A stretch of DNA of 64,000 nt from Escherichia phage Ecwhy_1 (MH791411.1), one strand, 5' to 3'; counted from the first letter of the stretch, positions 7,118-60,252 are shown. The notes: generated from the letters alone by a model not told the origin. Numbers and translations: made by a program.

Positions 7118-7185
7118 TTTAATGTTTCCTTATCAGTGGTTGATGTAAGTATTATACTCGTTTACTTTCTATTGTCAAACTATTT

Positions 7186-7432: not shown

Positions 7433-7582
7433 TTAAACTTCTTTCGGGTTGCGATATGTGATAGCGTTCGGGTACATTTGTTTAATGTTATTCCATGCCT
7501 GGTTAACATTATAACCACTTGATCGAATCAGTTGGTTATTACCGACACCTTGAAACACTACTTCAAATAAGAATTCTTTCAT
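7433..7582 (-). CDS. hypothetical small protein (49 aa, not in ORF track)
   Basis: ATG overlaps stop of upstream gene (ATGA); SD GAGG. Confidence 0.35.
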   Translation of the reverse strand: MKEFLFEVVFQGVGNNQLIRSSGYNVNQAWNNIKQMYPNAITYRNPKEV

Positions 7583-45450: not shown

Positions 45451-45517
45451 TTCGTTATCCTCATCAATTGATGAAATAATTATAGCAAAAAGGGCTGACC
45501 TAAGTCAACCCTTTTGT

Positions 45518-46861
45518 TTAGTTTTGTTTCACCCCACCCCATTTTTCATAGATGGCAATAATTTTATCTATGTTGTTTGGTGTAGTTGTTTCTGTATACC
45601 CATCCCCCACCTCTCTTTTAGTGAAGATTGGACAAAACTGCCTTTTACATTCATTTTCTGCGTTAGTACAATTTCCAACACTTGGAAAGCGATACGAATA
45701 CATTGGTTTTATATCAAAAATACTATTCAAATTTTGTTTTGAAACTCGATTGCCCTTTACTGTTTCTTTTCCATATTTCACACCAACACATACCCCGCTG
45801 TCCATTATTACATGAATATATGTATATGTTGCACACTTTCCGGCATCATATGGGTTACCTTGATGTTTATCTAAAAAGTTCGTTATAGATGTTTTATATG
45901 GTAAATTATTACTACTCCCCATCAACATTATGTTAGTTTTCTGATTTGGTTTTTCTGGATTGTGTTCAAACCCTATAAATTTATCATTTGAATTACGAAA
46001 TTCTAATTCCTTTTTTATACGATATACATACTGTGATTTAGTCCAGTGGAAATTAGTTGAACACCTACACGGTATAATATGTGCAGATGATAAATCATTT
46101 AGTGTTGCGTAGAATACACCATCACATACACCAGCTTGTACATATTCATCATAACTACACTTCGCACACACAAATTTGTATAAACGATAATTTCCCCTCA
46201 TCTTTTCTGATGGTTGAATTGTAAATTCATTAGTTAAATGACCATTATTATTAATTTTATCTATATGATATTGTAGTGGTTTAGAGTTAGTTTTAGTTAT
46301 TGACTCTTTTTTACATTTCATACAACCAAATGTTTTATTTTTTGATGTTAACGTATTAATATTAGAAATCGAACAAAACACATTATGTTTGTTACAATAA
46401 ATTAGTATCTCAGTGTTGGTAGCATTAATTTTATCATAAGAACCAAGACCCAATAATGTATATATCCCACCACTGAATTTTTTGAATTGTTCAATAATAG
46501 TCATAATATGTTGTGTATTTGTTTTCTTTGTCCACTTTGTTGCAGATTTCTTTTTAGTAATATGTATGGAGTTTATTCCCAATCCATATATTAAACCATT
46601 CGGGACATCATATTTTTTAAGATAGTGTTTACTATTATTGTAAATGAAATATCCCAAAATCGAGTTATCATTATTGGAAAAATCATCTTGGGGTAATTTA
46701 TTAAAATCCATATGGTTGAAATCTTTTGTTGGATGGCGTTCTGATAAAATAATACGAGTTATTTTATCAGAATCGACCATTTTTGAACAAATTGTAATTC
46801 TAACATCTTGTATGAAATTCAATTTGGTACATTTAAAAGGTACTTTAATATCAACACGCAT
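45518..46861 (-). CDS. hypothetical Cys-rich protein (447 aa)
   Basis: ORF; SD AAGGAG; several C-x2-C pairs (CMKCKK, CAKCS). Confidence 0.6.
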   Translation of the reverse strand: MRVDIKVPFKCTKLNFIQDVRITICSKMVDSDKITRIILSERHPTKDFNHMDFNKLPQDDFSNNDNSILGYFIYNNSKHYLKKYDVPNGLIYGLGINSIHITKKKSATKWTKKTNTQHIMTIIEQFKKFSGGIYTLLGLGSYDKINATNTEILIYCNKHNVFCSISNINTLTSKNKTFGCMKCKKESITKTNSKPLQYHIDKINNNGHLTNEFTIQPSEKMRGNYRLYKFVCAKCSYDEYVQAGVCDGVFYATLNDLSSAHIIPCRCSTNFHWTKSQYVYRIKKELEFRNSNDKFIGFEHNPEKPNQKTNIMLMGSSNNLPYKTSITNFLDKHQGNPYDAGKCATYTYIHVIMDSGVCVGVKYGKETVKGNRVSKQNLNSIFDIKPMYSYRFPSVGNCTNAENECKRQFCPIFTKREVGDGYTETTTPNNIDKIIAIYEKWGGVKQN

Positions 46862-47090
46862 TACTTAAAACTCCTTTCCAGTACTGAACCCGTCCAGCAC
46901 CATTAATCTTAGCTTGAATCTTATCTTTTTCGACAAGACCTTCTTTGTAATCGATGGAAGTATTATCGCACTGAATTACATCTAAGTCAAGTACTTCTTG
47001 TGTACTTAATGAAGTATTGTCTGCAATTTGTTGTAATGTAATGATATCAGTACCGAAGAATTCTGCTAAACGTATAAAAGATAGTTTCAT
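46851..47090 (-). CDS. hypothetical protein (79 aa)
   Basis: ORF; SD AGAGGCAATAC. Confidence 0.55.
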   Translation of the reverse strand: MKLSFIRLAEFFGTDIITLQQIADNTSLSTQEVLDLDVIQCDNTSIDYKEGLVEKDKIQAKINGAGRVQYWKGVLSNAC

Positions 47091-47210
47091 GTATTGCCTC
47101 TTGAGATGATGAAATAATTATAGCAAAAAGGGCTGACCTAAGTCAACCCTGTTTTAAAGTTTTTTTAATATGTTGATAACGACGGTATGTATTCACCATC
47201 TGTCATCATT

Positions 47211-47948
47211 TCACACGATATCCCCATATGGTTTAATTGTTTTTAGACACCAAGGAATAGGAATCCCATATTCAGAACCCCATAAATCTGAATAAGAATT
47301 ATAGAGTTCACCAAGTTCTTTCATCTGTTCATAGTTGTTCAACAACTGATATTGAAAGTCTAAGCCTTCATCCCCAACTGGTACAAACTTATTACCAAGT
47401 AGGTTATTTTTTACTTTACCTATATGTATGCCATGTGTCGCATCAGATATCGTCCCATCACTTTCTAACCAAAACGATCCATCATATGATCCACTACCTC
47501 TACGAATATAAATTCTTTCTCCATATGGAACAATAGCTGGAGTTGTCATATCATGCAATGCATTATTGTACTTATTATCTTTATCAAAAGTATTAATACT
47601 ACCTTCAGAAAAAGATTTATTATTAGAAAGAATAAAGTATGCCATATCATTTATTAATTGTGATGGAACCCATCCATGCGAATCACCATCAGAACCTACG
47701 TTGTAATAAGTAATTTCGTTTCCTAATTTATCAACTGTAATATCAATATCATATACAGGAAATGACCCACTATAACGTTCATAACCATGAGCATCGAATG
47801 TTAAATATCCATTATTATCTAATATCATACTATAAGTACTATTATTAATAACAATAGTAAGTTCTTTTTGTTTTCCACATTTTAAGGTAGTTCGCGAATA
47901 AGTTAATTCATAATATGTTTTGTATAAGTAATGTTCTTCTATCAACAT
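47211..47948 (-). CDS. hypothetical protein (245 aa)
   Basis: ORF; SD AAGGATATTTAA. Confidence 0.6.
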   Translation of the reverse strand: MLIEEHYLYKTYYELTYSRTTLKCGKQKELTIVINNSTYSMILDNNGYLTFDAHGYERYSGSFPVYDIDITVDKLGNEITYYNVGSDGDSHGWVPSQLINDMAYFILSNNKSFSEGSINTFDKDNKYNNALHDMTTPAIVPYGERIYIRRGSGSYDGSFWLESDGTISDATHGIHIGKVKNNLLGNKFVPVGDEGLDFQYQLLNNYEQMKELGELYNSYSDLWGSEYGIPIPWCLKTIKPYGDIV

Positions 47949-48146
47949 TTAAATATCCTTGTTGGATAATCATAACGTTAGTTCGTTAATGATTATTATA
48001 TAAAGGATGATAACTAACTATTTTTCAAGTTAATATATTCACCCCATAAATTATATATATTGTTTTCAACACAATCATCATCGCTTAATTCTATCATTGA
48101 CGATATAAGTACTGAATAGTTCATTACACATCTGTCACTACATCAA

Positions 48147-48341
48147 CTAATCCTCACTGAAAACAACAATAAGGAATGACACGAACAATGCCGCATAACA
48201 AGGAGCTATCTTCATGTACCACGGGACTTCATAATACCATGTACCCAATTCATCCCACGAAAAGAGTATACTCACACCGAAGCCGATTAGCGATAGTACA
48301 ATAAAAGAAATCCAGAAACGCTTTGAATATACTAATAACAT
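48147..48341 (-). CDS. small membrane protein (64 aa)
   Basis: Two hydrophobic segments; SD AAAGGAAC. Confidence 0.5.
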   Translation of the reverse strand: MLLVYSKRFWISFIVLSLIGFGVSILFSWDELGTWYYEVPWYMKIAPCYAALFVSFLIVVFSED

Positions 48342-48379
48342 GTTATGTTCCTTTGTGTGACCGAAGTTAACCCTTACCT

Positions 48380-48895
48380 TTAATAATTATTCATTTCATC
48401 TTTGATTTGTTCTTCAATTTCGTCGAACATATCAGTACTAGATTCTATATTACTACTTACGTCCTGCATATCTTTAACGTACTGTGGGCGTTCAACGTCA
48501 GTAAATTTATACCACATAGGCTTCATATGGAGCTTCTCAATCAAACGCTCACGAGACATTTTAATCTCTGACTCCGATGGTACGTAGTCATTACAAAACT
48601 CAGCAGGGAAGCCGCTAATGTCGTTTACTTCAGTGTTTTGAATCTTCATCCCACGACGCAAACATTCGTTAACAATATCAATATGACGCTTCTGTAAGTA
48701 CAATAACTTGTTGTAGAAGAATGTTACATGACCTGAACCTAACAGGTAAGTACTGTTAATTTTGAAATCACGGACTCGCTTACGTGCTTGAACATGTTTT
48801 TGTACAGCACCAAACACACGTGGGAGTTCACGATATTCAGCCATCAGATGTTGGTCAGCAAGTTCTTTAACGTGTACTAAGTTAATGCGTGTCAT
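48380..48895 (-). CDS. denV: pyrimidine dimer DNA glycosylase (T4 endonuclease V homolog), 171 aa
   Basis: N-terminal ~130 aa aligns from memory to T4 DenV ([42 protein letters not shown]); acidic C-terminal extension; SD GAGAGGATG. Confidence 0.85.
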
Positions 48896-48936
48896 GTATT
48901 CATCCTCTCGTTTCGATGAAATGATTATAGCAAAAA

Positions 48937-48956
48937 GGGCTGACCGAAGTCAACCC
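48937..48956 (-). terminator. terminator hairpin carrying the -35 of the next promoter (example; 8 copies between 45491 and 60069)
   Basis: - strand GGGTTGACTTCGGTCAGCCC + TTTTTGCTATAAT: stem contains TTGACT, T-run runs into TATAAT. Confidence 0.55.
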
Positions 48957-49237
48957 GTTTTGAAAGGATTTTTTAATGGTTTTCGTACTGTATGTATTTT
49001 GCTTTGTAGTTCTTCTTCCCACAAAACATTTATATTATAAACTAAATCATTGTAGTCACTGTTCACAAAGATAAAATCATACTTCTCATTAAAAGTATGA
49101 GAAATCAATTGCATTTTCATAAGTATTATTGAACTTTTAAATTTATATGTTTCTTTTTCTTCTCCAGTTTTTGAACTTTGTATATTTTTTATAAATTCCA
49201 TGAATTCATCATTGGTCATTGTTTCAGCATCCAACAA
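48950..49237 (-). CDS. hypothetical protein (95 aa)
   Basis: ORF; weak SD. Confidence 0.45.
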   Translation of the reverse strand: MLDAETMTNDEFMEFIKNIQSSKTGEEKETYKFKSSIILMKMQLISHTFNEKYDFIFVNSDYNDLVYNINVLWEEELQSKIHTVRKPLKNPFKTG

Positions 49238-49496
49238 TACCCAACTTCACAATCTCATACCCATCCAAATATCCATATGAACACTCAGGCGTTTCATAAG
49301 ATGAACCATCATGGATGCCCTGGCATTGACTTTTGGAATTCTCAAGCAATCGTTGCAGTACTGATACGTCATCAAGAACGTAATACAAGTTAGCATATAG
49401 GTCCGTTACAATACAGTACTCCAACATGTCAAATGTATCAATCGAAATTTCAACCTTAGCAAATTGTTTCTTTTCTTTATTATACAGTGCGTACAT
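49224..49496 (-). CDS. hypothetical protein (90 aa)
   Basis: Trimmed to MYALYNK start with SD GGAG. Confidence 0.5.
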   Translation of the reverse strand: MYALYNKEKKQFAKVEISIDTFDMLEYCIVTDLYANLYYVLDDVSVLQRLLENSKSQCQGIHDGSSYETPECSYGYLDGYEIVKLGIVGC

Positions 49497-49497
49497 A

Positions 49498-49869
49498 TTA
49501 ATCTCCATAATCAAGTTTAACTAACTTACCACCCAGATACCCAAAGTTTTCTGGCTTCGCATCTGAATAGAAGAAGTCAGTACTCAACTCTGAATCCAAT
49601 GCTAAAGCACACAACTCCACCCAAAATAAACCCCTATGTTGTACTGGCTTACAACGTTTCTGTACAGTTACTAGTCCAGTACATGATGACCACAACGTAG
49701 GGCAGATACCACTATCACTACGCTTGGAGTACTGCATCCAAGAACGTTCATTGAGGTTAGCTATCATCCCTGTTAAGAATAGCTTCCAACTTTTAAAGGT
49801 TGGAATCTTGATAGCATATTCCCCAATGAGTATGACAGTTCGTGTTGCACCTTTCAAATCTATATTCAT
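49498..49869 (-). CDS. short kinase-like protein (123 aa)
   Basis: Motifs EYAIKIP (Lys), DAKPENFG (catalytic-loop-like), KLDYGD (DFG-like), ending right after DYG; no clear SD. Confidence 0.45.
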   Translation of the reverse strand: MNIDLKGATRTVILIGEYAIKIPTFKSWKLFLTGMIANLNERSWMQYSKRSDSGICPTLWSSCTGLVTVQKRCKPVQHRGLFWVELCALALDSELSTDFFYSDAKPENFGYLGGKLVKLDYGD

Positions 49870-49878
49870 ATTTTTTAA

Positions 49879-50130
49879 TTAGAAGAACACAAACCAAGTC
49901 CAGAATAAATTCCACACTACAAATAAAGACATAGTGGTTTTATGTACAATATCAGCAGTACTGGTCCATCCTCCACCGTGTCCTATTCCATTTATGAATA
50001 GAACTAAGAACAAGATACCATTTACTACAATAGTACATAGTAAGTACACAAACACATTCCATGCAAGTTCAGGGGATACTAACGTAAATGGTAAAACAAT
50101 TAGTAGTATTAGAACTAATAAAATTTTCAT
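49879..50130 (-). CDS. small membrane protein (83 aa)
   Basis: Hydrophobic N-terminus; SD GTGAGG. Confidence 0.55.
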   Translation of the reverse strand: MKILLVLILLIVLPFTLVSPELAWNVFVYLLCTIVVNGILFLVLFINGIGHGGGWTSTADIVHKTTMSLFVVWNLFWTWFVFF

Positions 50131-50158
50131 TTATCGCCTCACTTAATTAACGTGACAA

Positions 50159-50335
50159 TTAGTACGAATCAGATTCCCAGTACTCGATTGCTTCTTTCAG
50201 CAATTCTTTAGCACGTTGTTTTGCAATGCGAGCGGGTAACAGATATGTGTACATTAACTGACGCTTCACTTCATTCAGTGAAAGCTGTTCATGGTACAGT
50301 GCATCCATCAGTCGATTACGAGTACGTAGTTTCAT
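50159..50335 (-). CDS. hypothetical small protein (58 aa, not in track)
   Basis: SD AAGGATAAC; replaces overlapping + strand track ORF 50221-50424. Confidence 0.4.
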   Translation of the reverse strand: MKLRTRNRLMDALYHEQLSLNEVKRQLMYTYLLPARIAKQRAKELLKEAIEYWESDSY

Positions 50336-50346
50336 ATAAGTTATCC

Positions 50347-50901
50347 TTATTTCAAAGAATCATAGTAAGCAGTGTCAAAGATTGGAGTCATAATAACATA
50401 GTCAATACGGTCAATGTAAGTTGAACTCCACATTTCTGGTTTGTCATAAAATTGACGCTCGCGTTCATTCATACGAGTCAGTACTTCTTCCAATTTACTA
50501 CGTGAAGCCATCAATGTATTACGCGATCCATAAGTGAAGTACTCAGTCCATTGATATTCATATTCAGTACTGATAGATTGAATAGTACCATCTTTGAAAT
50601 GAGCTAAGGCATATCCTTTCTCTACAAAGTTATCAGGTGGAAGAACACTATCTGGATTAGTTTTCAATGCTTTGGTTAACTTTTCTTTAATTTCAGTTAA
50701 CGTGCATACTGAACGAATGTTCTTCAGGTTTGATACTTGAAAATCACTGTACTTTCCAAAGAAAAATACACGCCAATCTTTAGGTTCATTATCAGATACG
50801 GTAATATTCGGATGATGGGCGAGTAAACGAAGAAGGCCAGCTTTGTGACCGTTAATGTAGATCTCATGGATGTGGTTAGCAGTTTTCTTAAAAGTAATCA
50901 T
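50347..50901 (-). CDS. hypothetical protein (184 aa)
   Basis: ORF; SD GAGGAATTG; TTGACA-N17-TATAAT + hairpin GGGGATGAACTTCTCATCCCC. Confidence 0.65.
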   Translation of the reverse strand: MITFKKTANHIHEIYINGHKAGLLRLLAHHPNITVSDNEPKDWRVFFFGKYSDFQVSNLKNIRSVCTLTEIKEKLTKALKTNPDSVLPPDNFVEKGYALAHFKDGTIQSISTEYEYQWTEYFTYGSRNTLMASRSKLEEVLTRMNERERQFYDKPEMWSSTYIDRIDYVIMTPIFDTAYYDSLK

Positions 50902-50977
50902 GACAATTCCTCGATTGTGGGGATGAGAAGTTCATCCCCTTGATAAACATTATACAGTACTGAATGAGTTTGTCAAC

Positions 50978-51358
50978 TCAAAATAAATTCATTTCATGTG
51001 CGTATTGTGGTTCAAGATGCGATAAGTTTTTGAAGCTTTCTTTCAACTCAGCATCATCTACATACACCGTGCCTGGTACATTCCCCATAGTGAAACCTAC
51101 CCACACAGTCATGTCACCAGTCCCTAAGCGTGGCATTGATAGCGAACCATCAGGTGAAACATCAAACGCTACACTGAAGTCATCAGTAACAACGTCAGAA
51201 CCATTTTCGAGAATAATACATCCACTATCTTTAAGCTTCTGAATGTGGATAGCAGCCTCTACAGCACGTTTGAAGTTATAGTAAGACTCTTTATCCTCAA
51301 ACATTGATTGTTTAATCAGACGCTTGTTTAGCTCGGTTACTTTGTGCATTTGACGCAT
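50978..51358 (-). CDS. hypothetical protein (126 aa)
   Basis: ORF. Confidence 0.5.
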   Translation of the reverse strand: MRQMHKVTELNKRLIKQSMFEDKESYYNFKRAVEAAIHIQKLKDSGCIILENGSDVVTDDFSVAFDVSPDGSLSMPRLGTGDMTVWVGFTMGNVPGTVYVDDAELKESFKNLSHLEPQYAHEMNLF

Positions 51359-51615
51359 TACTTATCCATCTCCCACAGTTGTAGAATTTCATAAGAGCCT
51401 GGTGGTGCAGGATTCCTGATCTCAGGGAATTGAGTACTTTTAGGATTTCCACCAGCATTAAATTCGTCAAGTAATGATTCCAGTTCGCGACGATCCTGAA
51501 CAACATAAACACAATCACCTGAACCTTCTTCGAGAATCATTTCACTTCCTGCACAATCCCATACTATTGAGATACATAGAATCTCTTTTGTATTTTTATT
51601 ACGCAATGCAAACAT
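51358..51615 (-). CDS. hypothetical protein (85 aa)
   Basis: ORF; SD GGGGATTG; preferred over 51312-51518. Confidence 0.5.
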   Translation of the reverse strand: MFALRNKNTKEILCISIVWDCAGSEMILEEGSGDCVYVVQDRRELESLLDEFNAGGNPKSTQFPEIRNPAPPGSYEILQLWEMDK

Positions 51616-51624
51616 AGCAATCCC

Positions 51625-51993
51625 CTATCGATTTGGCATTTTATCTCGTAATTTCACAAGATAATCAATCACGGTACATCCTGAAATAAAGGTAATATAA
51701 GTACTGAAAAATCCTACCAGAATAAAGGCAACAAGCGTACTCCCATTTGGTTCTTCAGCTTTAATACCAATGATACCATCAGATGCAGTGAAAAATGTAG
51801 ACATAAACGTTAGACAGATGTACATCACTAATAAGAATTCATGTTCTAATGACGGATAAAAACGGTCAAAGAGTTTATAAAATTTAAAGTACAGTAGGAG
51901 TATACCAACAAAGGCATAGAAAGTAAACAGTGTTGTTATGATATATGATATTAAATTTAAATTATACATCTCAACGCTCCGGTAGATTATCAC
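51625..51993 (-). CDS. small polytopic membrane protein, second tandem cluster (122 aa)
   Basis: Hydrophobic helices; C-terminus KLRDKMPNR. Confidence 0.6.
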   Translation of the reverse strand: MIIYRSVEMYNLNLISYIITTLFTFYAFVGILLLYFKFYKLFDRFYPSLEHEFLLVMYICLTFMSTFFTASDGIIGIKAEEPNGSTLVAFILVGFFSTYITFISGCTVIDYLVKLRDKMPNR

Positions 51994-52318: not shown

Positions 52319-52321
52319 TCC

Positions 52322-52660: not shown

Positions 52661-52670
52661 TTTTTTACCC

Positions 52671-52973
52671 CTACATATATTCTAAGAATAATGTATTAGC
52701 TTCGTCTATGTTCTTAAGATAATACATGTAATACAGATTTGGTTGTCCGTCTTTTGAACTCAAATCAAAGTACTTTAAACTATGCACCTTCATGACAAAA
52801 ACAAATAATGACTTAAAACCAATCTCACCGTACTTAATAAACAGTTCATCTAAATGAATGTAACTCTTAGTTTCAGATAATTCCTTCACATCAGCTTCAA
52901 TTTCTTGTAAGCGAAGTTTACCGATTAAGTTTTCAAATGAACGCATGATGTTGTTCCTTATGCTGGTACACAA
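52671..52973 (-). CDS. hypothetical protein (100 aa)
   Basis: ORF. Confidence 0.5.
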   Translation of the reverse strand: MCTSIRNNIMRSFENLIGKLRLQEIEADVKELSETKSYIHLDELFIKYGEIGFKSLFVFVMKVHSLKYFDLSSKDGQPNLYYMYYLKNIDEANTLFLEYM

Positions 52974-53371
52974 TTTTTTATAATGAATACACGTTTCATG
53001 AATGAACTTTCATATACGTACTTCAGTTTACCATTTTCACGCATACGATGAAACACATCTTTACCACTAGTACTCCATGTTGAACCAGTCTCTGCATCAA
53101 CATTGTTCATTACACCAGATGTTACGTTCACCCCGTACTTGAAGCTAAAGGTACTGCCTTCTTCTACTAGAGGGATTGGTGTACTACGTTCATGTTCCAG
53201 TACAAGTTTACTGCCGATGATGTTGTACGAAGTTAGCTTGCATTTTAAAACACCCATCTCTTGTGCAGTTGGGTAATTCTTCTCAAATAAATCAGATACT
53301 TCATTTGCATAACAAACTGAACTAATCATAAGAAGTAATGAACTGATAGAACGGAAAATAACTTTTAACAT
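52958..53371 (-). CDS. secreted protein (137 aa), predicted signal peptide
   Basis: N-terminus MLKVIFRSISSLLLMISSVCYA; SD GGAGGCAAAC. Confidence 0.6.
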   Translation of the reverse strand: MLKVIFRSISSLLLMISSVCYANEVSDLFEKNYPTAQEMGVLKCKLTSYNIIGSKLVLEHERSTPIPLVEEGSTFSFKYGVNVTSGVMNNVDAETGSTWSTSGKDVFHRMRENGKLKYVYESSFMKRVFIIKNCVPA

Positions 53372-53437
53372 GTTTGCCTCCAGTAGTTGATGAAATGATT
53401 ATAGCAAAAAGGGCCGACCGAAGTCAACCCTTTTCTT

Positions 53438-53788
53438 TTATATTTTACATGTCATGTCTGGTTTTGGCTTTTCATTCTTTGGCTTTTCAAATGGATTTGG
53501 CTTAGGGGACTTTTTATCTTTGTCATCTTTAGCTTTCTTTTTGTTTTCTTTTTTATCCGATTTGTCAGCTTTGTCTTTCTTATCTTTTGAATCTTTGTCA
53601 GCTTTAGATTGTGGTTCCTCACATACAGCAGTTTTTGGCTCCGGCATATCACATGAGTTATCCACAGGTTTAATGAACTCTTTACAGTTGTAGAAGTATA
53701 AACTTTCATTGGTAGTAAGATTGTGGAATCTAAAAGTATTTTCACCATTAGTATATACTTTCTTAGTACTCTCAATATCATTACACAT
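53438..53788 (-). CDS. hypothetical protein with Lys/Asp-rich low-complexity tail
   Basis: Track ORF begins at a GTG; first ATG used here; alternative frame 53452-53802 is also open. Confidence 0.35.
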   Translation of the reverse strand: MCNDIESTKKVYTNGENTFRFHNLTTNESLYFYNCKEFIKPVDNSCDMPEPKTAVCEEPQSKADKDSKDKKDKADKSDKKENKKKAKDDKDKKSPKPNPFEKPKNEKPKPDMTCKI

Positions 53789-53798
53789 TGCAACCGTG

Positions 53799-54050
53799 TC
53801 ACCGGAATTCACGCTCGATACCTAGTATATCCGACTTACGTTCAGATAGTATTCCAGACGTATATCGATCTTTGTTATCAAATGCATTGAACCCTATAGT
53901 TTTATAATTGTCATGTACCAATCCTCTAGTGTAAGACTTGGTATAGAACTCACCGTTTCTAAACTCCTGTCTAGCAATGGAGCACTGGTATTCAGTACTA
54001 TAAACTATATCAGTAAACAATACAAGTGAAAATAAAACATATTTAAACAT
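53799..54050 (-). CDS. secreted protein (83 aa), predicted signal peptide
   Basis: N-terminus MFKYVLFSLVLFTDIVYS; SD AGAGGTAATG. Confidence 0.55.
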   Translation of the reverse strand: MFKYVLFSLVLFTDIVYSTEYQCSIARQEFRNGEFYTKSYTRGLVHDNYKTIGFNAFDNKDRYTSGILSERKSDILGIEREFR

Positions 54051-54121
54051 TGCATTACCTCTTATAAAACCCTCTACAATATTTACAAAAAAAGGTTGAC
54101 CGAAGTCAACCTTTTAAATGT

Positions 54122-55633
54122 TTATTTTTTATCCTTTCCAACACCACGGTCGTACTCTTTGAATGAGTTATCAAGTGTAGTTAGTGCATACTCATATGCT
54201 TCTGGTGATTCAATGTCAACATCATCTGCACCATTTACTAAATCAGCCCAAGCCTTTTGAAGTTTACGAGCATTGTTACCAACATTATCTTTAATCCAAC
54301 TAATGTTTTTGTTGATACTTTTACTATCAGCACCTGCTTTTTTACCAATCTCGGATATCCACATCATTAGCTTTTGAAGTTCATGAATTGATTTATCGGT
54401 CATTTCAAGATGTTCTTCTTCCATACCTTCGGAATCAGATGAACCAACGTCAATTCCATGTTTAGCTAATAGTTTACCAAGTTCAAAGAATGCAGCTTCA
54501 GCAGGGAAGTCATAACCTTTGTCTTTATAGTTATTCCATGCACTATCAAACTCGTCAACAAAACGGTTAGCATAATCTGGATTTTTAACTAATGCTTTAT
54601 ATACTGCCATTGCATGTTCAAAACCTTCTTTATCTGACCCAAACTCTTCCATCTCAGGACGATGAATGTATCCATCCATATCAACGGTATCAGGTAGATC
54701 TTCTTGCTCAGGCTCAACATCTTTCTGTTCAACTGCACCTTCTTCATCTTTACGTAGTAGATATCCATCAGGTGTCACTTTCTCACCATGTTCTGCTTCA
54801 TACTTTTTCATAGTGTTGAATGCAGCATCCATAGCTGTTACGAAGCGACTTTTCTCACCTTGTACATAAGATTTAAGTGCACTGTTAACTGCATCTGATA
54901 CGAGCTTAACCTTATCATCTTTACCTTCTAAACGGTTTTCAAGTTTAGCCAGTACATTCTTGACTTGCTGGGCATTAGCACGTTCTGCTTTACCAATACT
55001 ATCAAAAATTTTAAGAATACCATCAAGACTTGCTTCACCCTGTTCAGGTTCTTTGGAATCTTCTTTGTGTGTACCTTCAAGTGCACGCATGATAGTACTG
55101 AATACTTCAGTAGGTTCAGTGCTCTTATTACCTTTCATTGCATCAAGTACAGCTTGTGCTTTACCTTTGAGTTCTTCTTTAGGAACTGCCTGTAGTGCTT
55201 TGACAATACCCTGAATCAACTGTGGTTTGTTAGCAAAGATCTTACCTAAGTTATCAGATAACTCTTTAACAGGGTTAGCAGCTTTAGGAGCTTCTGGTTT
55301 TGGTTCTTCTTTAGGAACTGCTTGTTCTTTCTCAGCACGTTCCATATCAGCAAGGCGTTGTTTCTGTGTTGCGTTAAGAAGACCTAATGAGTTAACATAA
55401 CGTAGCTTTTCTAGCTCAGTCATGTTCTCAGTACTCTTAACTTCACCTGCTTCTGCGTTTGCCTTACCAGCTAAACCTGTCCCTTGATTACGTGAACCAC
55501 GTGACCCCTGTCCTGCTTGGTAGCTATTTTGACGACGATTGCGTTCACTCCATTTATCAGAGTGACCTGCCATGTTCCCGCCATTTTTATCAGTAAATTG
55601 ACCTGGCATTTGATTTCTCTCCATAGATTTCAT
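54122..55633 (-). CDS. hypothetical protein (about 500 aa), G/N/Q/R-rich N-terminus
   Basis: ORF (start may be ATG at 55609 with SD GGAGAG); shares motif with 56481-56864. Confidence 0.65.
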   Translation of the reverse strand: MKSMERNQMPGQFTDKNGGNMAGHSDKWSERNRRQNSYQAGQGSRGSRNQGTGLAGKANAEAGEVKSTENMTELEKLRYVNSLGLLNATQKQRLADMERAEKEQAVPKEEPKPEAPKAANPVKELSDNLGKIFANKPQLIQGIVKALQAVPKEELKGKAQAVLDAMKGNKSTEPTEVFSTIMRALEGTHKEDSKEPEQGEASLDGILKIFDSIGKAERANAQQVKNVLAKLENRLEGKDDKVKLVSDAVNSALKSYVQGEKSRFVTAMDAAFNTMKKYEAEHGEKVTPDGYLLRKDEEGAVEQKDVEPEQEDLPDTVDMDGYIHRPEMEEFGSDKEGFEHAMAVYKALVKNPDYANRFVDEFDSAWNNYKDKGYDFPAEAAFFELGKLLAKHGIDVGSSDSEGMEEEHLEMTDKSIHELQKLMMWISEIGKKAGADSKSINKNISWIKDNVGNNARKLQKAWADLVNGADDVDIESPEAYEYALTTLDNSFKEYDRGVGKDKK

Positions 55634-55714
55634 ATTGTTTATTCTCTATGACTATATTTATAGTATAAAGAAAAGGTTGACCGAAGTCAACCCTATTTTC
55701 ACTGTACTATACCA

Positions 55715-56011
55715 TTAGTAGTTACAGTCAGCTTTCGCTGTGAATGTTTTACTTTCACCTCGTTGTGTGGTGATTCGTCCGAGTAAAGTAGTTTTGTCAA
55801 TAGTCATTGTAGTTAGTACTGGAACATTACCTTCAAAGTCAATAGCTTTGAAATTGTAGGTGGTTTCATTCTCCACTACACTTGGACCAAAGAGTTCATA
55901 TGTGTTGATTTCAAGTGTGTCACCATCTGAACGCAACAGTGTGCAGTCCAGATTAGGAGTAGCCAGTACTGGGAAAGCCAAAAACATCATCATTACAATA
56001 ATTAATTTCAT
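55715..56011 (-). CDS. secreted protein (98 aa), predicted signal peptide
   Basis: N-terminus MKLIIVMMMFLAFPVLA; SD CAGGAG. Confidence 0.6.
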   Translation of the reverse strand: MKLIIVMMMFLAFPVLATPNLDCTLLRSDGDTLEINTYELFGPSVVENETTYNFKAIDFEGNVPVLTTMTIDKTTLLGRITTQRGESKTFTAKADCNY

Positions 56012-56271
56012 TTCACTTCTCCTGTTTTTTTCTTAGGATCAACCAATGACCAAATGAAGAATCCGAGAATTACAAGTACCCACAGAATCATGATAAAGAA
56101 AGCGAACAGTACAATAGTGTTTGTCAAAAAGAAATACAATAGAATGTTCGACCCAATACTACATACAATCAATGCAGCTTCATGTTTAACAACACGAATG
56201 GCTGTAATGAGTGCAGGAAGAAATCCGACAAATAACAGTACTAACGCATATAGTGATAATGTTTCAGCCAT
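56008..56271 (-). CDS. small membrane protein (87 aa)
   Basis: Hydrophobic helices; SD AAGGGATATC. Confidence 0.55.
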   Translation of the reverse strand: MAETLSLYALVLLFVGFLPALITAIRVVKHEAALIVCSIGSNILLYFFLTNTIVLFAFFIMILWVLVILGFFIWSLVDPKKKTGEVK

Positions 56272-56480
56272 GATATCCCTTATTTGGTTTGTTCAAAACT
56301 AGGTGTATTGATATAGGTGTCAATTGAATAACATACTGTACCCACTACAACAGCAGCGATTAGGGCAGCGATGATGAATTTAGTACCTTGCATAATTTAA
56401 TACCTCACGTTGTTTGTATTTTGTATCACTTGATGAAAATATTATACGACAAAGGGCTGACTGAAGTCAACCCCTTTTAA

Positions 56481-56864
56481 TTATTTTTTAAACTTATGTT
56501 TTTCGCCTTCAATAGAGTTCACGATGTCATCATGAATCTTGCGAAGGTTATGAGTTTTCTTTAGTGCTTCATGTAGTGCACGGAATGCTGCGTGTACTGT
56601 TGCCTTGAAGTGCTCTTTAGGAGTCACTTTAAGTTTCTCAATGATATCACGTACATAAATTGGATGATCTTCAAATACACGATTCAATTCATGGCCTAGT
56701 GATTCTAAACTGAAAGCTTTTTCGCGTGAAGGACGATCATGTGCAAGACTTTGGTCAGGCTTTAGTAGACCTAGTGAATCAAGATACTTATGCTTATGTG
56801 CATTATCAATTCCAGAAATATCCACATCATGCGATGGATCTTTCTTATTCCATTTATCAACCAT
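56481..56864 (-). CDS. hypothetical protein (127 aa), related to N-terminal part of 54122-55633
   Basis: Shared Y-x-(N/D)-SLGLL motif; SD AAGGAGTATG. Confidence 0.6.
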   Translation of the reverse strand: MVDKWNKKDPSHDVDISGIDNAHKHKYLDSLGLLKPDQSLAHDRPSREKAFSLESLGHELNRVFEDHPIYVRDIIEKLKVTPKEHFKATVHAAFRALHEALKKTHNLRKIHDDIVNSIEGEKHKFKK

Positions 56865-56975
56865 TTCATACTCCTTAAAGAGATAAATTACTTTAATATT
56901 TATACTTCATGTGCTGTTTATTTCAACAGACACTTAAGATTATATCACATATGAAATGGTTGTTCCAAAGTCAAA

Positions 56976-57419
56976 TCAGTACTGTTTAAGTTCTGAACTG
57001 AAGATAAAGGAATCCATATCTTCTAGTGTTAACTTCAAGTTCGGTGTGTACTTTAATATCACACATTCAGGTTTCTTAATGGCAGCTTGATAGGCAGCAA
57101 TTGCCAACTGTTGAAGCTGCTCTGGTGTGTAGTTCATGCGTTCTGCATTGAATACGATGTTCTTAATATCACCACCTGGCAGCTTCTCAAACTCACGCAT
57201 AACAGCAGCCATCACATCATCAGATGTATTCTTATAAGCCCAATGAGGTAGTTGCATAACGTCATAAATCTCGCCATTGTCGTTCATAAGAGAGATCCAT
57301 TTTTTACCGTCCGATGAACTAAACAGACGACCTTTAATAGCAATGTTCTCTACCAAATTAACAAAGGCAAATATGTCTTGCTCATTTAGTTCAATGCTAT
57401 TAACGTTAATCCAACCCAT
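56976..57419 (-). CDS. hypothetical protein (147 aa)
   Basis: Trimmed to MGWINV start with SD GGAG. Confidence 0.55.
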   Translation of the reverse strand: MGWINVNSIELNEQDIFAFVNLVENIAIKGRLFSSSDGKKWISLMNDNGEIYDVMQLPHWAYKNTSDDVMAAVMREFEKLPGGDIKNIVFNAERMNYTPEQLQQLAIAAYQAAIKKPECVILKYTPNLKLTLEDMDSFIFSSELKQY

Positions 57420-57432
57420 ACTACATCTCCAG

Positions 57433-58005
57433 TTATAAATCACGAACGACATTCATTAAACACAATTTGGGCTTTATCGCATTCAAAACCCATATGCATT
57501 CTTTGTAAGTTGCTATTATAGCATCTAAATGCTCAGTTACAATGCTTTCTTGAAAATATTCTTCTTCATTGAGCTTTGCTAAATTAGTCACATCACATGT
57601 AGGTACTATAGGTCTGGATTGTACACCCATTCCATTATTGATATTGGTAAAATGTAAAAAATTGTACTTCACCACACCGTTATCTACACTTATGATACAT
57701 GTCAAATGTTCCAACTCAGTTAGTTCGGTATTACAAGTGACATGAATGAATCCAGCATTATAGGCTCTATAATCATCTACTAATATCTCAAAATCATTAC
57801 GTTTAAATATAAGTGAAATGAGTTTGTCTTGTGGTTTAACCTTCTGAAATTTTACCGAATTTACGTATGATACTTTAATCTTAGATGAAATTATCTTTTT
57901 ACTAAGTGCAGTTAATTCTTCTTTAGCCTTAAAAGTTAAAGTTATAGGTCTAAATCTAGAACTTTTGTTCTTCTTTGATACTTTGAACTTACCTTTTCTA
58001 TTCAT
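57433..58005 (-). CDS. hypothetical basic protein (190 aa)
   Basis: ORF; terminator hairpin and SD upstream. Confidence 0.6.
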   Translation of the reverse strand: MNRKGKFKVSKKNKSSRFRPITLTFKAKEELTALSKKIISSKIKVSYVNSVKFQKVKPQDKLISLIFKRNDFEILVDDYRAYNAGFIHVTCNTELTELEHLTCIISVDNGVVKYNFLHFTNINNGMGVQSRPIVPTCDVTNLAKLNEEEYFQESIVTEHLDAIIATYKECIWVLNAIKPKLCLMNVVRDL

Positions 58006-58019
58006 TAATTAAACCCCAC

Positions 58020-58052
58020 ATAAAGTAAAAGGGTTGGAATAATACCAACCCT
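58020..58052 (-). terminator. intrinsic terminator
   Basis: Hairpin GGGTTGG-TATTATTCC-AACCC + TTTTACTTT on - strand. Confidence 0.5.
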
Positions 58053-58059
58053 ATATCTT

Positions 58060-58296
58060 TTATTTTTTAATAGATTCATAAAGCAGAAACAACCAAATAA
58101 ACATTGATGAACAAACTACTACTGGGATTAATGTAAATTCAGTAAAGAATAAAAGTATTCCATAAGTTAGTATGCAACATAAGTTTACGTACATAATTGC
58201 TTCTGCATTTTTATTTTTCATTTTATATGCAATGAATGTTGGTGACCACATTACCAAAAATGCAAACAACGCACATATGATGATTATAGTTTCCAT
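58060..58296 (-). CDS. small membrane protein (78 aa)
   Basis: Hydrophobic helices; SD GGAGGTG. Confidence 0.55.
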   Translation of the reverse strand: METIIIICALFAFLVMWSPTFIAYKMKNKNAEAIMYVNLCCILTYGILLFFTEFTLIPVVVCSSMFIWLFLLYESIKK

Positions 58297-58366
58297 ATTA
58301 CACCTCCGTAAAATAATGTTCTGTACTGCTATTATTTACAGAGAATATCTGAAAAATTGATCTAGA

Positions 58367-58591
58367 TCAATTTTTAGTCACTTTACAATTTGAATCTTTT
58401 TTGTACTGAACAATCACATTGTTCTTAAGGAAGATGATGGTCCCATAGGAACCTTGGGCTGCAACTTCAACAATATGGTTCTTATATGTTTCAGTATATC
58501 CTTCCATCTCGTTGATACACACTACATGATACTTTGGTTTAGCACATACAACAGTACTCAAGAATAGCAGTACTAGTACTAGATATTTCAT
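58367..58591 (-). CDS. secreted protein (74 aa), predicted signal peptide
   Basis: N-terminus MKYLVLVLLFLSTVVCA; SD AAGGTAATAA. Confidence 0.55.
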   Translation of the reverse strand: MKYLVLVLLFLSTVVCAKPKYHVVCINEMEGYTETYKNHIVEVAAQGSYGTIIFLKNNVIVQYKKDSNCKVTKN

Positions 58592-58641
58592 TTTATTACC
58601 TTATAAACAAGAACAGGAATCCTTTTACGGATTCCTATAAT

Positions 58642-58935
58642 TTAGTCCTTTAATGTACCATTGTGTAAACGATTATACACATCATTGCGACGCAACTCAA
58701 CAATATCTTCAGCGTACTTCATTGTAAACGCCCATGCTTTTGGATGCACATTAAGCTTCATACGAATGCGATTCTTCATCAATTCACCGCTTAGGCGAAC
58801 AAACTCATGAACACCACGACTTCCGTACTCTGAAATCAAATCATTGATGTACATGTTGCGAAGGGTTTCGTCTGTACATTCTTTAACCATTTCTACGTCT
58901 GCCACGATGCTTGCATTTACTGAAGTACTGATCAT
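58642..58935 (-). CDS. hypothetical protein (97 aa)
   Basis: ORF; SD AAGGTAAC. Confidence 0.55.
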   Translation of the reverse strand: MISTSVNASIVADVEMVKECTDETLRNMYINDLISEYGSRGVHEFVRLSGELMKNRIRMKLNVHPKAWAFTMKYAEDIVELRRNDVYNRLHNGTLKD

Positions 58936-58946
58936 TTTAAGTTACC

Positions 58947-59213
58947 TTATTTGAATTGGACTGTAATTTTATCACCTTCAACTACGAACTTACAGTCGTA
59001 GCGACGGGCCATATCCATATACATATGCTCAGAATACCACGGAACATCAATAACTGGATGCTCTGCGTATTGTAGCACTTCACGGTCACCAACAGTAGTG
59101 ATGACGAAAGGAATGTTCATCTCTCGCAAAAACAACTCGGCACCTGGTGAACGATTGACAAACTCAGTGTCGTTACGCAAAGTAAAACCATTGTATTGTA
59201 ATTTAAGCTTCAT
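58947..59213 (-). CDS. hypothetical protein (88 aa)
   Basis: ORF; SD AGAGGATAATC. Confidence 0.55.
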   Translation of the reverse strand: MKLKLQYNGFTLRNDTEFVNRSPGAELFLREMNIPFVITTVGDREVLQYAEHPVIDVPWYSEHMYMDMARRYDCKFVVEGDKITVQFK

Positions 59214-59227
59214 GATTATCCTCTAAG

Positions 59228-59572
59228 TTAATACCATTCTTTTAAACCATCAAGTTCGGCTATGTGAGTAATTATAACACAGATAACACTCAGGTCAAGC
59301 ATTATTTGCTCATAATTTAATTTTATTCTATCATCACTGTATGCTCTAAAAACAACATCAAAGTCAAAGTAGTTATCGTTTTCATCATTCATTGGAATGA
59401 TTCTATATCTACGTCTACCATCATCATTGAATACAGTCAAACATTGTTTGAATTTCTTCATTAACTGTGTAGTCAATGCATTGTAATATGCAACATCATA
59501 TTGTGTACAACGTGGGTCATTGGGTAGATAAAACGATACAAATTTTTTTAATTCTATTTGAGTCTTATCCAT
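59228..59572 (-). CDS. hypothetical protein (about 114 aa)
   Basis: Trimmed to MDKTQI start with SD GAGG. Confidence 0.5.
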   Translation of the reverse strand: MDKTQIELKKFVSFYLPNDPRCTQYDVAYYNALTTQLMKKFKQCLTVFNDDGRRRYRIIPMNDENDNYFDFDVVFRAYSDDRIKLNYEQIMLDLSVICVIITHIAELDGLKEWY

Positions 59573-60005
59573 ATACAGCCTCATGTATTACTCTTTTACT
59601 TTGGCGGTACTCATCCTTTGCTTCTCTCACTGACATGATACGAACCAGATTGGCACTACCACAATAGTACTGAACCTGACTACGACCAATGTCAACATGA
59701 TTATCAGGAACTTCATATACTGATACAGCAAACCCTGCACGATGTAATTTACCCAAGTCCATAGTAAAGAACTTAAACAAATCATTCAAACTCTGACAGC
59801 CAAATGCCCAGCCACGTTTGATTGAATAGATTCCATCTTCAGTTGGTTCTGGTTGGAATTGCGAAGGCGTGGTCATGCACAAACGGTCAAATCCATTTTT
59901 AGTACTGTATCGTGAAGAGTACCGTGCGAACGGCCCTACTGTTTTTGCTGGATCTAAGTTAGGTTCAATATAACTGAATTTAAGTTCAAAACGATATACG
60001 TACAT
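59565..60005 (-). CDS. hypothetical protein (146 aa)
   Basis: ORF; SD GGGGATTTTAAT; terminator-promoter hairpin upstream. Confidence 0.6.
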   Translation of the reverse strand: MYVYRFELKFSYIEPNLDPAKTVGPFARYSSRYSTKNGFDRLCMTTPSQFQPEPTEDGIYSIKRGWAFGCQSLNDLFKFFTMDLGKLHRAGFAVSVYEVPDNHVDIGRSQVQYYCGSANLVRIMSVREAKDEYRQSKRVIHEAVYG

Positions 60006-60060
60006 AATTAAAATCCCCAGTAGTTGATGAAATAATTATAACAAAAAAGGTTGACCGAAG

Positions 60061-60252
60061 TCAACCTTTATTTTGAAGTTCTTGAACTAATTGTCGTACT
60101 TCTTTGATGTTATGACACTGCTTTACAGTGAAGTAATCATACTTACGACCATAGGTTCTTGGATCATCACCTTCCATATACTGCTGCACATCAAAGATTT
60201 GTAAGTAGGGATGCTGCATAACACGAATGTTACCACATTGATAAATCAACAT
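60061..60252 (-). CDS. hypothetical small protein (about 63 aa)
   Basis: Track ORF begins at a GTG; trimmed to ATG with SD GAGGA. Confidence 0.45.
   Translation of the reverse strand: MLIYQCGNIRVMQHPYLQIFDVQQYMEGDDPRTYGRKYDYFTVKQCHNIKEVRQLVQELQNKG

Follow-up and report, generated by a model that had tools for sequence, protein, structure and literature searches.

Putative terminator–promoter modules of the PeSL type among the small genes of an Asteriusvirus jumbo coliphage

The DNA analysed here, 64,000 nucleotides of Escherichia phage Ecwhy_1 (MH791411.1; hereafter the window), derives from an Asteriusvirus, i.e., a jumbo coliphage of the 121Q/PBECO4/RaK2-like type, and carries a family of short intergenic hairpins. 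A search of both strands with GGGTTGACTTYRGTCARCCC, allowing at most two mismatches and using shuffled sequences as the null, returned exactly eight matches, every one on the minus strand, at 45492–45511 (M1), 47130–47149 (M2), 48937–48956 (M3), 53411–53430 (M4), 54093–54112 (M5), 55674–55693 (M6), 56454–56473 (M7), and 60048–60067 (M8), which reproduces to within 1 nt the coordinates proposed in an earlier note on this sequence. The number expected by chance is 0.01, and eight were reached in none of 100 shuffles. The sequence of the hairpin is nearly fixed (GGG-TTGAC-UUCG-GUCAG-CCC). The family is larger than eight, with four diverged copies in the left arm between 1.4 and 11.4 kb (L1–L4) and one degraded copy at 48358–48387; all 12 copies M1–M8 and L1–L4 lie on the coding (minus) strand. 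In the 352-kb genome of phage TH47, all 12 such hairpins are likewise on one strand and within a 57-kb stretch (90–147 kb).

Six of the eight right-arm copies (M1–M4, M7, and M8) have a full layout in which a stop codon is followed by an A-tract, a hairpin containing TTGACT, a T-run, TATAAT at a spacing of 18 bp, a C-A start 7 nt further on, and then a Shine-Dalgarno motif and an ATG. M1 (45472–45517, paired region 45488–45515) lies 6 nt past the stop codon of a 447-aa open reading frame (ORF) and combines an A-tract with a −35 TTGACT at 45503–45508, TG-n-TATAAT at 45479–45484, and a predicted +1 A at 45472, ahead of an AAA-ATPase-like gene with its ATG at 45450. M2 (47110–47157) has a UUAG loop, a −35 at 47141–47146, a −10 TATAAT at 47117–47122, a predicted +1 at 47110, and an ATG at 47090. 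M3 (48917–48964; cUUCGg loop, −35 at 48948–48953, −10 at 48924–48929, predicted +1 at 48917) precedes the gene for an endonuclease V (DenV-like, ATG at 48895), and M4 (53391–53437; −35 at 53422–53427, −10 at 53398–53403, predicted +1 at 53391, ATG at 53371) has two G·U pairs in its stem. M7 (56434–56480; UUCA loop, −35 at 56465–56470, −10 TATAAT at 56441–56446, predicted +1 at 56434) is followed by an ORF for a small membrane protein and by an immunity-like gene. In M8 (60028–60069; −35 at 60059–60064, TG-n-TATAAT at 60035–60040, predicted +1 at 60028, ATG at 60005), the outer pair of the stem is A-U instead of G-C.

According to the earlier note, every copy would be flanked by TTTTTGCTATAAT and CATTTCATC. 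This flank, with TG-n-TATAAT at an 18-bp spacer, is present in M1–M4 and M8, whereas TATAAT lacks the TG in M7 and the remaining two copies differ more strongly. M5 (54086–54118) is a perfect palindrome with an A-tract on one flank and a run of seven T on the other; a usable −10 was looked for and not found, the place being taken by TGTAAA, and this −10-less state is kept in vB_Ec-M-J, G17, 121Q, TH47, and ECO103. M5 is a putative terminator only, and possibly a bidirectional one. M6 (55655–55699) has TATACT at 55662–55667 after a 17-bp spacer, followed by TATAAATA at 55655–55662 instead of CATTTCATC, and precedes a 503-aa gene annotated in relatives as a virion structural protein.

The left-arm copies have the same parts with longer leaders. 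L1 (1352–1399) forms a GGGATTGAC-UCAG-GUCAGUCCC hairpin with one extra compensated A-U pair, a T-run of 3 T only, a −35 at 1382–1387, a 17-bp spacer, TG-n-TATTAT at 1359–1364, and a predicted +1 at 1352. L2 (4109–4156; UCCG loop), L3 (7379–7426), and L4 (11389–11436; compensated outer stem UGG/CCA) have their −35 boxes at 4139–4144, 7409–7414, and 11419–11424, a −10 TATTAT at 4116–4121, 7386–7391, and 11396–11401, and predicted starts at 4109, 7379, and 11389, respectively. A terminator and a promoter within about 45 bp of the minus strand, as the earlier note had proposed for the right-arm hairpins, are backed by sequence and comparative evidence in six of the eight right-arm copies and in all four left-arm ones; the proposal is not supported as stated for M5, which has no promoter half, and for M6, where the late motif TATAAATA appears to stand in place of a standard early promoter.

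In most copies, about 5–21 nt separate the stop codon from the hairpin; this distance is 61 nt for M2, whereas the stems of M3 and M8 are directly adjoined or overlapped by the stop codon. Every copy has an A-tract immediately before the stem on its 5′ side (columns 1–5 of alignment A2 are A-rich). Except in one right-arm copy, 39–42 nt lie between the hairpin end and the ATG of the eight right-arm modules. The right-arm leaders have Shine-Dalgarno-like motifs of the GAGG/GGAG type 5–10 nt 5′ of the ATG.

Among close relatives, indels end in or beside the hairpins, with five of 12 breakpoint clusters at most 30 nt from one (P = 2 × 10−5 on a uniform null, 0.034 on an intergenic null). These junctions could reflect recombination between modules, yet several module-adjacent indels involve HNH homing-endonuclease genes in relatives, which could account for the breakpoints in another way: such genes lie directly upstream of M1 and M3 in vB_Ec-M-J and fEgEco12, where the window has other DNA. 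That free-standing homing-endonuclease genes inserted into intergenic DNA and, with other illegitimate events there, produced the breakpoints is possible, and the marginal enrichment on the intergenic-only null favours it, but we consider it doubtful; it bears on the shuffling part of our explanation only. It sits poorly with fEgEco12, which lacks window positions 45521–48357 and in which the crossover falls inside the hairpin, with 25 bp at the junction common to both flanks. The left junction of this absent 2.8-kb segment is the degraded half-module GGGTTAACTTCGGTCAC (48358–48387, minus strand), directly 3′ of the endonuclease V stop codon. Further evidence for exchange between modules comes from M1 and M2, which are identical across 46 nt including the derived UUAG loop, and from M4, whose hairpin is the sole conserved island within a segment replaced relative to G17, between unrelated flanks.

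Regarding the promoter half, a −10 (TATAAT, TATTAT, or TATACT) lies 17–18 bp from TTGACT in 11 of the 12 window copies, all except M5, and a TG precedes it in nine. Among 121 distinct contexts with the same hairpin in related phages, 105 (87%) have a −10 at a 16–19-bp spacer, 102 of them at 17–18 bp, against a background of 12.6%; the TG is present in 82 of these 105. In 131 of 156 contexts (84%), position +7 past the −10 is an A with a pyrimidine in front of it. In TH47, only six of 115 near-consensus promoters have the hairpin-embedded layout, which is thus one option among several and no rule. In all six of these, T occupies the sixth position of the −35, a base that doubles as the first of the loop; only 7 of the 109 others have T there, and TTGACA predominates among them (70/109), a sign of dual constraint. 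Half of the hairpin loops are UNCG, which sets this base to T.

Use of the host sigma-70 at these promoters is our assumption, as the phage encodes a sigma-70-family factor of its own; in relatives, an RpoD-like sigma gene lies just past the right end of the region. The modules might be read by this factor, or by the host holoenzyme in a modified form, and would then belong to a middle class rather than to the immediate-early one. We think this unlikely, since the promoters conform almost perfectly to the sigma-70 consensus of E. coli, with extended −10 and UP-like A-tract. In addition, the main text of the report on phage CBB describes RpoD-like promoters that cluster in a small-ORF region taken as early, and a second class with −35 TGAAACG (PMC5259590).

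The hairpin half was assessed on RNA of both strands. Minus-strand RNA of the eight right-arm sites folds at −12.1 to −18.0 kcal/mol (z = −4.4 to −5.6), the range over the family being −12 to −19.5 kcal/mol, and plus-strand RNA of the same sites folds more weakly (z about −2.9 for the two plus-strand sites run) because a G·U pair of the minus strand becomes C·A; the earlier claim that this pair exists only in minus-strand RNA holds. In a set of 133 distinct hairpin cores with 500 shuffles as the null, 95.5% of cells were paired and 45 cells had changed on both sides, which no shuffle matched.

Alternatively, the element could be a promoter only, with an irrelevant RNA hairpin and an inverted repeat that works as double-stranded DNA, for instance as a palindromic operator by which a dimeric phage regulator switches early promoters off, or as a signal for recombination. 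The near-palindrome TTGAC-N4-GTCAA does coincide precisely with the −35, a place for which repressor and sigma would compete, and Arbiol et al. (2010, PMC2839356) speculated about protein binding to the stem of PeSLs (promoter-early stem-loops). The comparative data render this very improbable. Outer stems that are wholly changed and still complementary (GTAC/GTAC, GGAT/ATCC, TGG/CCA) point to structure rather than a sequence-specific site; imperfect positions are G·U in minus-strand RNA and C·A in the other sense in 105 of the 133 cores; and the loops are rich in the RNA-specific stable classes UNCG (65/133) and GNRA (16/133). Moreover, a T-run of at least three follows the stem in 118 cores, and the elements always lie right behind a stop codon, in gene orientation.

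If an intrinsic terminator is taken to be a transcribed-strand stem that is GC-rich and no shorter than 5 bp, with a 3–8-nt loop and a U-rich tail immediately behind it, the window hairpins have the sequence of one, and a consensus scan flagged M2, M3, M6, and M8 on the minus strand and M5 on the plus strand. Termination may be incomplete, since the U-tract is broken (UUUUUGC) and no longer than UUU in L1–L4. Like M5, about 13% of the copies in relatives (of the 121 contexts) lack a −10, and the hairpin can hence stand as a plain terminator, while TTGAC in its stem is no proof of promoter use. For Asteriusvirus phages, mapped transcript 5′ or 3′ ends (Term-seq, RNA-seq) were not found in the searchable literature. 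That the element is everywhere just a terminator or 3′-stabilising hairpin, with TTGAC and TATAAT-like hexamers as by-products of a favoured hairpin and AT-rich intergenic DNA, agrees with these −10-less copies and with the G17 GenBank record, where ARNOLD terminators alone are annotated on the equivalent hairpins, and is nevertheless scarcely credible given the −10 spacing (nearly always 17–18 bp), the TG, the C/T-A at exactly +7, the Shine-Dalgarno motif and ATG at a fixed 39–42 nt, and the invariance of TTGAC where any complementary sequence could form a hairpin.

Both halves, hairpin and promoter, look to be under selection. We consider it probable, at roughly 80%, that the modules are compact, self-contained transcription units of the PeSL type in the small-gene and presumably early region of this phage, in which an RNA hairpin probably ends one transcript and the same DNA carries the −35 of the next promoter. 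What we observed directly is how the sequences are built, the covariation of the paired positions, the asymmetry between strands, the restriction to a single genome region, and the indel junctions at modules, whereas actual termination, initiation, early timing, and host sigma-70 use are what we infer. RNA polymerase coming from the upstream gene would first transcribe the A-tract on the minus strand, then a GC-clamped hairpin of 8–13 bp, as a rule with a UUCG loop, and then the U-rich tract UUUUUGCUAUAAU, where it would terminate, so that the upstream mRNA would keep a hairpin at its 3′ end. This duplex would also act as a strong host sigma-70 promoter, with the A-tract as UP-like element, TTGACT of the 5′ arm as −35, the 3′ arm and T-run filling the 17–18-bp spacer, and TG-n-TATAAT as extended −10; transcription would start at the C-A 7 nt downstream of the −10 and yield a leader that is about 20 nt long and contains a Shine-Dalgarno motif. 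If so, each cassette would be shielded from read-through and have its own promoter, and cassettes could consequently be gained, lost, or swapped by recombination in the repeated module with their neighbours undisturbed.

The composite design is already known from T4-like phages, which makes the modules a real and largely ordinary feature. As described in the passages of Arbiol et al. (2010, PMC2839356) and Comeau et al. (2014, PMC4122927) that deal with them, the PeSLs of RB49/phi1, T4/PST, and KVP40/nt-1 have in common with the modules an AT-rich tract, sigma-70-like −35 and −10 boxes, a GC-rich stem-loop with G·T pairs, and a concentration in variable small-ORF regions where indels end at cassettes. 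A stem-loop over the −35 is one of five PeSL positions described there, and it is this subclass that the modules match; an identical hairpin with embedded −35 is present in KVP40. In lacZ fusions, selected phi1/RB49 PeSLs of unstated subclass had terminator and promoter activity, a stem-loop lowering lacZ expression to a degree similar to that of the rrnB T1 terminator, and one of the PeSLs driving about 13,000 Miller units, and inverse PCR for RB49 and phi1 indicated mini-circles formed by recombination of neighbouring cassettes (PMC2839356, PMC4122927).

The modules have promoter boxes at about 17 bp, an A-tract, a stem-loop over the −35, a Shine-Dalgarno motif with start codon, and a variable small-ORF location with indels that end at the cassettes, the breakpoint statistic being marginal on the intergenic null (P = 0.034) and homing endonucleases a confounder. 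They differ from PeSLs in being borne by a RaK2/121Q-like jumbo myovirus rather than a strict T4-like phage, in the fixed place of the hairpin relative to the −35, which varies in PeSLs, in an almost fully determined hairpin sequence, and in being known from sequence alone. The PeSL class is defined by architecture rather than taxon. Intrinsic (Rho-independent) terminators with a cUUCGg tetraloop, which Tuerk et al. reportedly found in 1988 to be common in T4 intercistronic regions, likewise combine a stem rich in GC and a UNCG loop of extra stability with a U-tract behind and an A-tract ahead of the hairpin. Unlike in these, the module U-tract is short, as TG-n-TATAAT must sit 17–18 bp from the −35, and its distal U-rich part is supplied by the −10 itself.

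RaK2-like phages are placed near T4-like phages on the portal-protein tree of the CBB paper (PMC5259590), and CBB, a RaK2-like phage, has RpoD-like early promoters with UP-like elements, of the same consensus type as the modules and similarly clustered among short hypothetical genes; unlike here, the main text of that paper lists promoters and terminators apart and does not use "stem-loop" or "hairpin". Genome-wide promoter–terminator coupling described in bacteria (bioRxiv 10.64898/2026.08.19.745784, in the portion available) also places initiation and termination sites of adjacent units together, and what the module sequences indicate for their predicted sites is co-location only, not a mechanistic coupling of termination to re-initiation.

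In M6, the promoter that accompanies the hairpin seems to be a late one of the T4 type rather than a standard early one. The passages on PeSLs in Arbiol et al. (2010, PMC2839356) and Comeau et al. (2014, PMC4122927) make no mention of a late-promoter version, and the closest parallel described there is the nt-1 PmSL, in which a terminator hairpin is likewise joined to a promoter of another temporal class, namely a Mot-box middle promoter instead of the late motif TATAAATA. If a T4-type late promoter is taken to be TATAAATA at about 20–40 nt upstream of a gene that is late or structural, with the motif avoided elsewhere, M6 has the sequence of one: the motif occurs three times in the window against 13.7 expected, and its two minus-strand sites (that of M6 and 56897–56904) precede the two genes annotated in relatives as virion-structural.

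A search of the window with GGGTTGACTTYRGTCARCCC allowing up to two mismatches returned exactly eight sites compared with 0.01 expected from shuffles. All fall on the - strand of the right arm (41-64 kb), which carries small, densely packed and mostly hypothetical genes on that strand, and they lie at 45492 (M1), 47130 (M2), 48937 (M3), 53411 (M4), 54093 (M5), 55674 (M6), 56454 (M7) and 60048 (M8). This bears out the eight hairpins that an earlier note had described as doubling as terminator and -35 element; the element is real and well defined, and the note was right in its essentials. Its statement that each copy continues into TATAAT and CATTTCATC holds for six of the eight and fails for M5 and M6. 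In M1-M4 and M8, 18 bp separate the TTGACT of the 5' arm from a TG-n-TATAAT, and a conserved (C/T)ATTTCATC comes next; M7 has TATAAT and lacks the TG, M6 has TATACT at 17 bp, and M5 has no acceptable -10. A profile made from the eight copies brought up four diverged left-arm copies on the same strand (-35 boxes at 1382, 4139, 7409 and 11419), which read GGGATTGAC-UCCG-GUCAGUCCC, have TATTAT at a spacing of 17 bp and carry a T-run of three only, as well as one degraded remnant at 48358-48387. On the - strand, a module starts at the stop codon of the upstream gene, followed by an A-rich stretch (about 5-21 nt from stop codon to hairpin in most copies, 61 nt in M2), the hairpin and a T-run; the stem of M3 and M8 directly adjoins the stop codon or overlaps with it. 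The hairpin spans 20 nt, with 8-13 bp paired including A-U extensions. Past the T-run come the -10 hexamer, a C-A seven nt further on, a leader of about 20 nt that includes the Shine-Dalgarno sequence, and the ATG. The hairpin-to-ATG distance is 39-42 nt in seven of the eight copies of the right arm. Two more intergenic hairpins with T-rich tails lie in the same gene run on the - strand (58030-58052 and 58613-58638); with stems devoid of TTGAC and no convincing -10, they are candidates for plain terminators.

The promoter half was assessed over a wider set of phages. Scanning IMG/VR viral contigs with the exact pattern recovered the same hairpin in 73 stretches, including presumed genomes of RaK2, GAP32, CBB, 121Q, KVP40 and VH7D. 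In 105 of 121 distinct contexts a -10-like hexamer follows at a spacing of 16-19 bp (102 of these at 17-18), against a background of 12.6% for a -10 at that spacing in the same DNA, and 82 of the 105 carried the extended -10 TG. With contexts aligned on the -10, an A preceded by C or T occurs seven nt past it in 131 of 156, as would be expected of a start site. The complete 352-kb genome of the related phage TH47 holds 115 near-consensus promoters of sigma-70 type, with 11 or more of 12 positions matching, versus about 21 in shuffles, of which 107 lie on one strand, scattered over most of the genome; only six of the 115 have the hairpin-embedded layout. Instead of host sigma-70, a phage sigma factor may read the module promoters, and in relatives a phage sigma-factor gene closes the right-arm gene run. 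That the repeats are terminators only is disfavoured, since the -10, the TG, the start-site signature and the Shine-Dalgarno spacing speak against it.

For the other half, the - strand RNA of M1-M8 folds at -12.1 to -18.0 kcal/mol (z -4.4 to -5.6) and that of the left-arm copies at down to -19.5 kcal/mol. Folds of the + strand are weaker by 0.4-10 kcal/mol because G·U pairs turn into C·A, and the earlier argument that G-U pairing favours - strand function is thereby confirmed. Covariation was evaluated in 133 distinct cores collected with TTGAC-N4-GTCRR as the sole anchor. Paired cells make up 95.5%, both sides have changed in 45 cells, and the observed covariation was matched by none of 500 shuffles; in some cores the GGG/CCC outer stem is swapped for others such as GTAC/GTAC, GGAT/ATCC and TGG/CCA. 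UNCG loops account for 65 and GNRA loops for 16 of the 133 cores, and at least three T follow the stem in 118. The sixth base of the -35 doubles as the first loop base. TH47 has T there in each of the six near-consensus promoters that are embedded in a hairpin and in only 7 of the remaining 109, most of which read TTGACA; at this least critical position of the promoter consensus, the demands of the loop take precedence. In 105 of the 133 cores the first T of TTGAC forms a wobble with G, and in only 28 does it have an A partner (columns 9 and 22 of the alignment), so that the asymmetric state is preferred; this wobble keeps the hairpin strand-asymmetric, weakens the antisense hairpin and deletes the antisense mirror TTGAC. 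A promoter whose inverted repeat serves as a DNA operator is disfavoured by the covariation, the G·U asymmetry, the loop classes and the T-run, and the operator reading was rejected on the first three. Function on the + strand was rejected, given that + copies occur only as mirror images of perfect palindromes and fold more weakly. In the GenBank record of phage G17, orthologous hairpins are already marked as ARNOLD-predicted terminators. A scan of the whole window found no tRNA and no Rfam family at gathering thresholds, and the repeats are therefore not known RNA genes.

M5, a perfect palindrome flanked by A- and T-tracts, has kept its state without a -10 in five relatives and is best read, from its sequence, as a terminator only. 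After M6 comes TATAAATA, a T4-type late-promoter motif that is strongly under-represented in the window (3 sites versus 13.7 expected: 55655-55662 and 56897-56904 on the - strand and 26846-26853 on the + strand). Both - strand sites lie ahead of two genes annotated in relatives as virion structural proteins. Given this avoidance and position, M6 looks like the same terminator hairpin joined to a late promoter. The two - strand sites fall inside an otherwise early-looking region.

We consider it probable, at roughly 0.8, that the modules have a dual use, in which each would act on the upstream transcript as an intrinsic terminator and 3'-protective hairpin and on the downstream gene as a host sigma-70 extended -10 promoter, with portability of the cassette as a side-effect. 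A further-reaching proposal, which we regard as improbable, is that the overlap does more than save space and hands termination over to initiation, and that the cassette spread horizontally between phage lineages rather than converging. Under such a hand-over, a polymerase stopping in the T-run would be freed some 10-20 bp short of the next start site, recaptured by sigma-70 and re-initiated there. A nearly identical cassette is found in RaK2-like jumbo phages, KVP40-like phages and probably T4-like Aeromonas phages, and some copies across these groups have the start region CATCGAAAC in common. The likeness to KVP40-type copies need not mean common descent because design constraints nearly fix the sequence: if TTGAC has to sit in a stem with a GC clamp and a UUCG loop, flanked by an A-tract and a T-run, almost every base is determined.

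The modules belong to a class described in 2010-2014, and the mechanism is not of a new kind. Promoter-early stem-loops (PeSLs), known first from RB49/phi1 and then from T4/PST and KVP40/nt-1, combine a stop codon with an AT-rich tract, a promoter of sigma-70 type, a GC stem-loop containing G·T pairs, a Shine-Dalgarno sequence and an ATG (Arbiol 2010, PMC2839356; Comeau 2014, PMC4122927), the same architecture as here. They gather in hyperplastic regions, are linked to indels and fall into five subclasses by stem-loop position, one of which overlaps the -35; in tests of selected phi1/RB49 PeSLs a stem-loop cut lacZ expression like rrnB T1, and one PeSL gave about 13,000 Miller units (PMC2839356, PMC4122927). 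The -35 consensus published for nt-1/KVP40 PeSLs, TTGYVH, does not fit the TTGACT found here. For the RaK2-like phage CBB, the published account describes RpoD-like promoters with UP-like elements and gives terminators in a separate list (PMC5259590). The RaK2 genome paper holds no promoter or terminator analysis, and our literature search found no paper tying PeSLs to the RaK2-like group.

The window DNA shares 98-99% identity with the Escherichia phages vB_Ec-M-J, Turkey3, BF17 and fEgEco12 and 80-90% with 121Q, PBECO4 and G17, all jumbo myoviruses with genomes of about 350-385 kb in the genus Asteriusvirus (RaK2-like group). All 12 TTGAC-N4-GTCRR hairpins of TH47 lie on one strand, which also holds 107 of its 115 near-consensus promoters, at 90-147 kb, the region syntenic with the window. 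Alignments to four relatives break at M1 (45519-45538), M2 (47150), M3 (48955-48961), M6 (55699), M7 (56430-56451) and the degraded copy (48358). The 2.8 kb at 45521-48357 are missing from fEgEco12, whose single module is a chimera with an upstream part like the degraded copy, a downstream part like M1 and the crossover point inside the hairpin; M1 and M2 share 46 nt with no difference, including an unusual UUAG loop. Besides M2, the segment missing from fEgEco12 comprises ORFs of 447, 79, 245 and 64 aa. A CapR homology domain was recognised in the 447-aa ORF (Pfam PF21817, E = 1.4e-6), where vB_Ec-M-J carries an HNH endonuclease gene instead, and the 245-aa ORF matched nothing in Pfam. At M4, the 30-bp hairpin is the only island of conservation where a segment has been exchanged between the window and G17. 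As seen on comparing window 52961-53678 with G17 locus L002 11790-13190, a T7 gp0.7-like protein kinase gene lies beside the M4 orthologue in G17 and 121Q and is absent from the window, and a lipoprotein-like gene (137 aa) is downstream of M4 in the window and its homologue upstream of the module in G17. Among the three closest relatives, 5 of 12 breakpoint clusters lie no more than 30 nt from a hairpin (P = 2e-5 with a uniform null, only 0.034 with breakpoints taken as intergenic). These breakpoints have a competing cause in HNH homing-endonuclease genes, which relatives carry beside M1 and M3. A MITE-like mobile element is disfavoured, the junctions having shown neither terminal repeats nor target duplications other than the module.

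With the modules, transcription units of 121Q/PBECO4/RaK2-like jumbo phages can be annotated by a rule at the level of sequence. Several of these phages were obtained as candidates for biocontrol or phage therapy, and the records of the group currently annotate the terminator half at most. The modules also show likely swap points for accessory genes (superinfection-immunity, lipoprotein, nuclease), extend PeSL-type cassettes beyond classic T4-like phages, and represent very compact natural "insulated promoter" parts and a clean natural substrate for the question of physical termination-initiation coupling.

Other promoter cassettes occur in the window. Each left-arm hairpin-promoter opens a repeated cassette of about 250 bp on the - strand (1050-1440, 3800-4200, 7050-7470 and 11050-11480). 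A conserved leader TA(G/A)CCCA(C/T)AGGGTGCATAAGTGTATC is succeeded there by a second promoter-like AAAAAGTACTTGCA-N17-TATAATG and another GC hairpin, with Shine-Dalgarno sequence and ATG at the end. The ACCC-N3/4-GGGT motif of the leader recurs downstream of hairpin-promoters in presumed RaK2, GAP32 and CBB contigs and matches no Rfam family; as its stem is invariant, a protein-binding site or a small leader RNA is conceivable. A promoter cassette of a second and more abundant type, (A)AGTATTGACA-N16 (ending AGTACTG)-TATAAT-AGTTTACATCAA, has its -35 at 1693, 3221, 3715, 6567, 6838, 8129, 10855 and 50976 on the - strand, with looser relatives at 1246, 9167, 10279 and 21499 on the same strand. 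Its eight copies are followed by a GC hairpin such as GGGGAGAA..TTCTCCCC with no T-run behind it, which is therefore likely a 5'-leader stem-loop rather than a terminator. The AGTACT palindrome recurs in and near these promoters.
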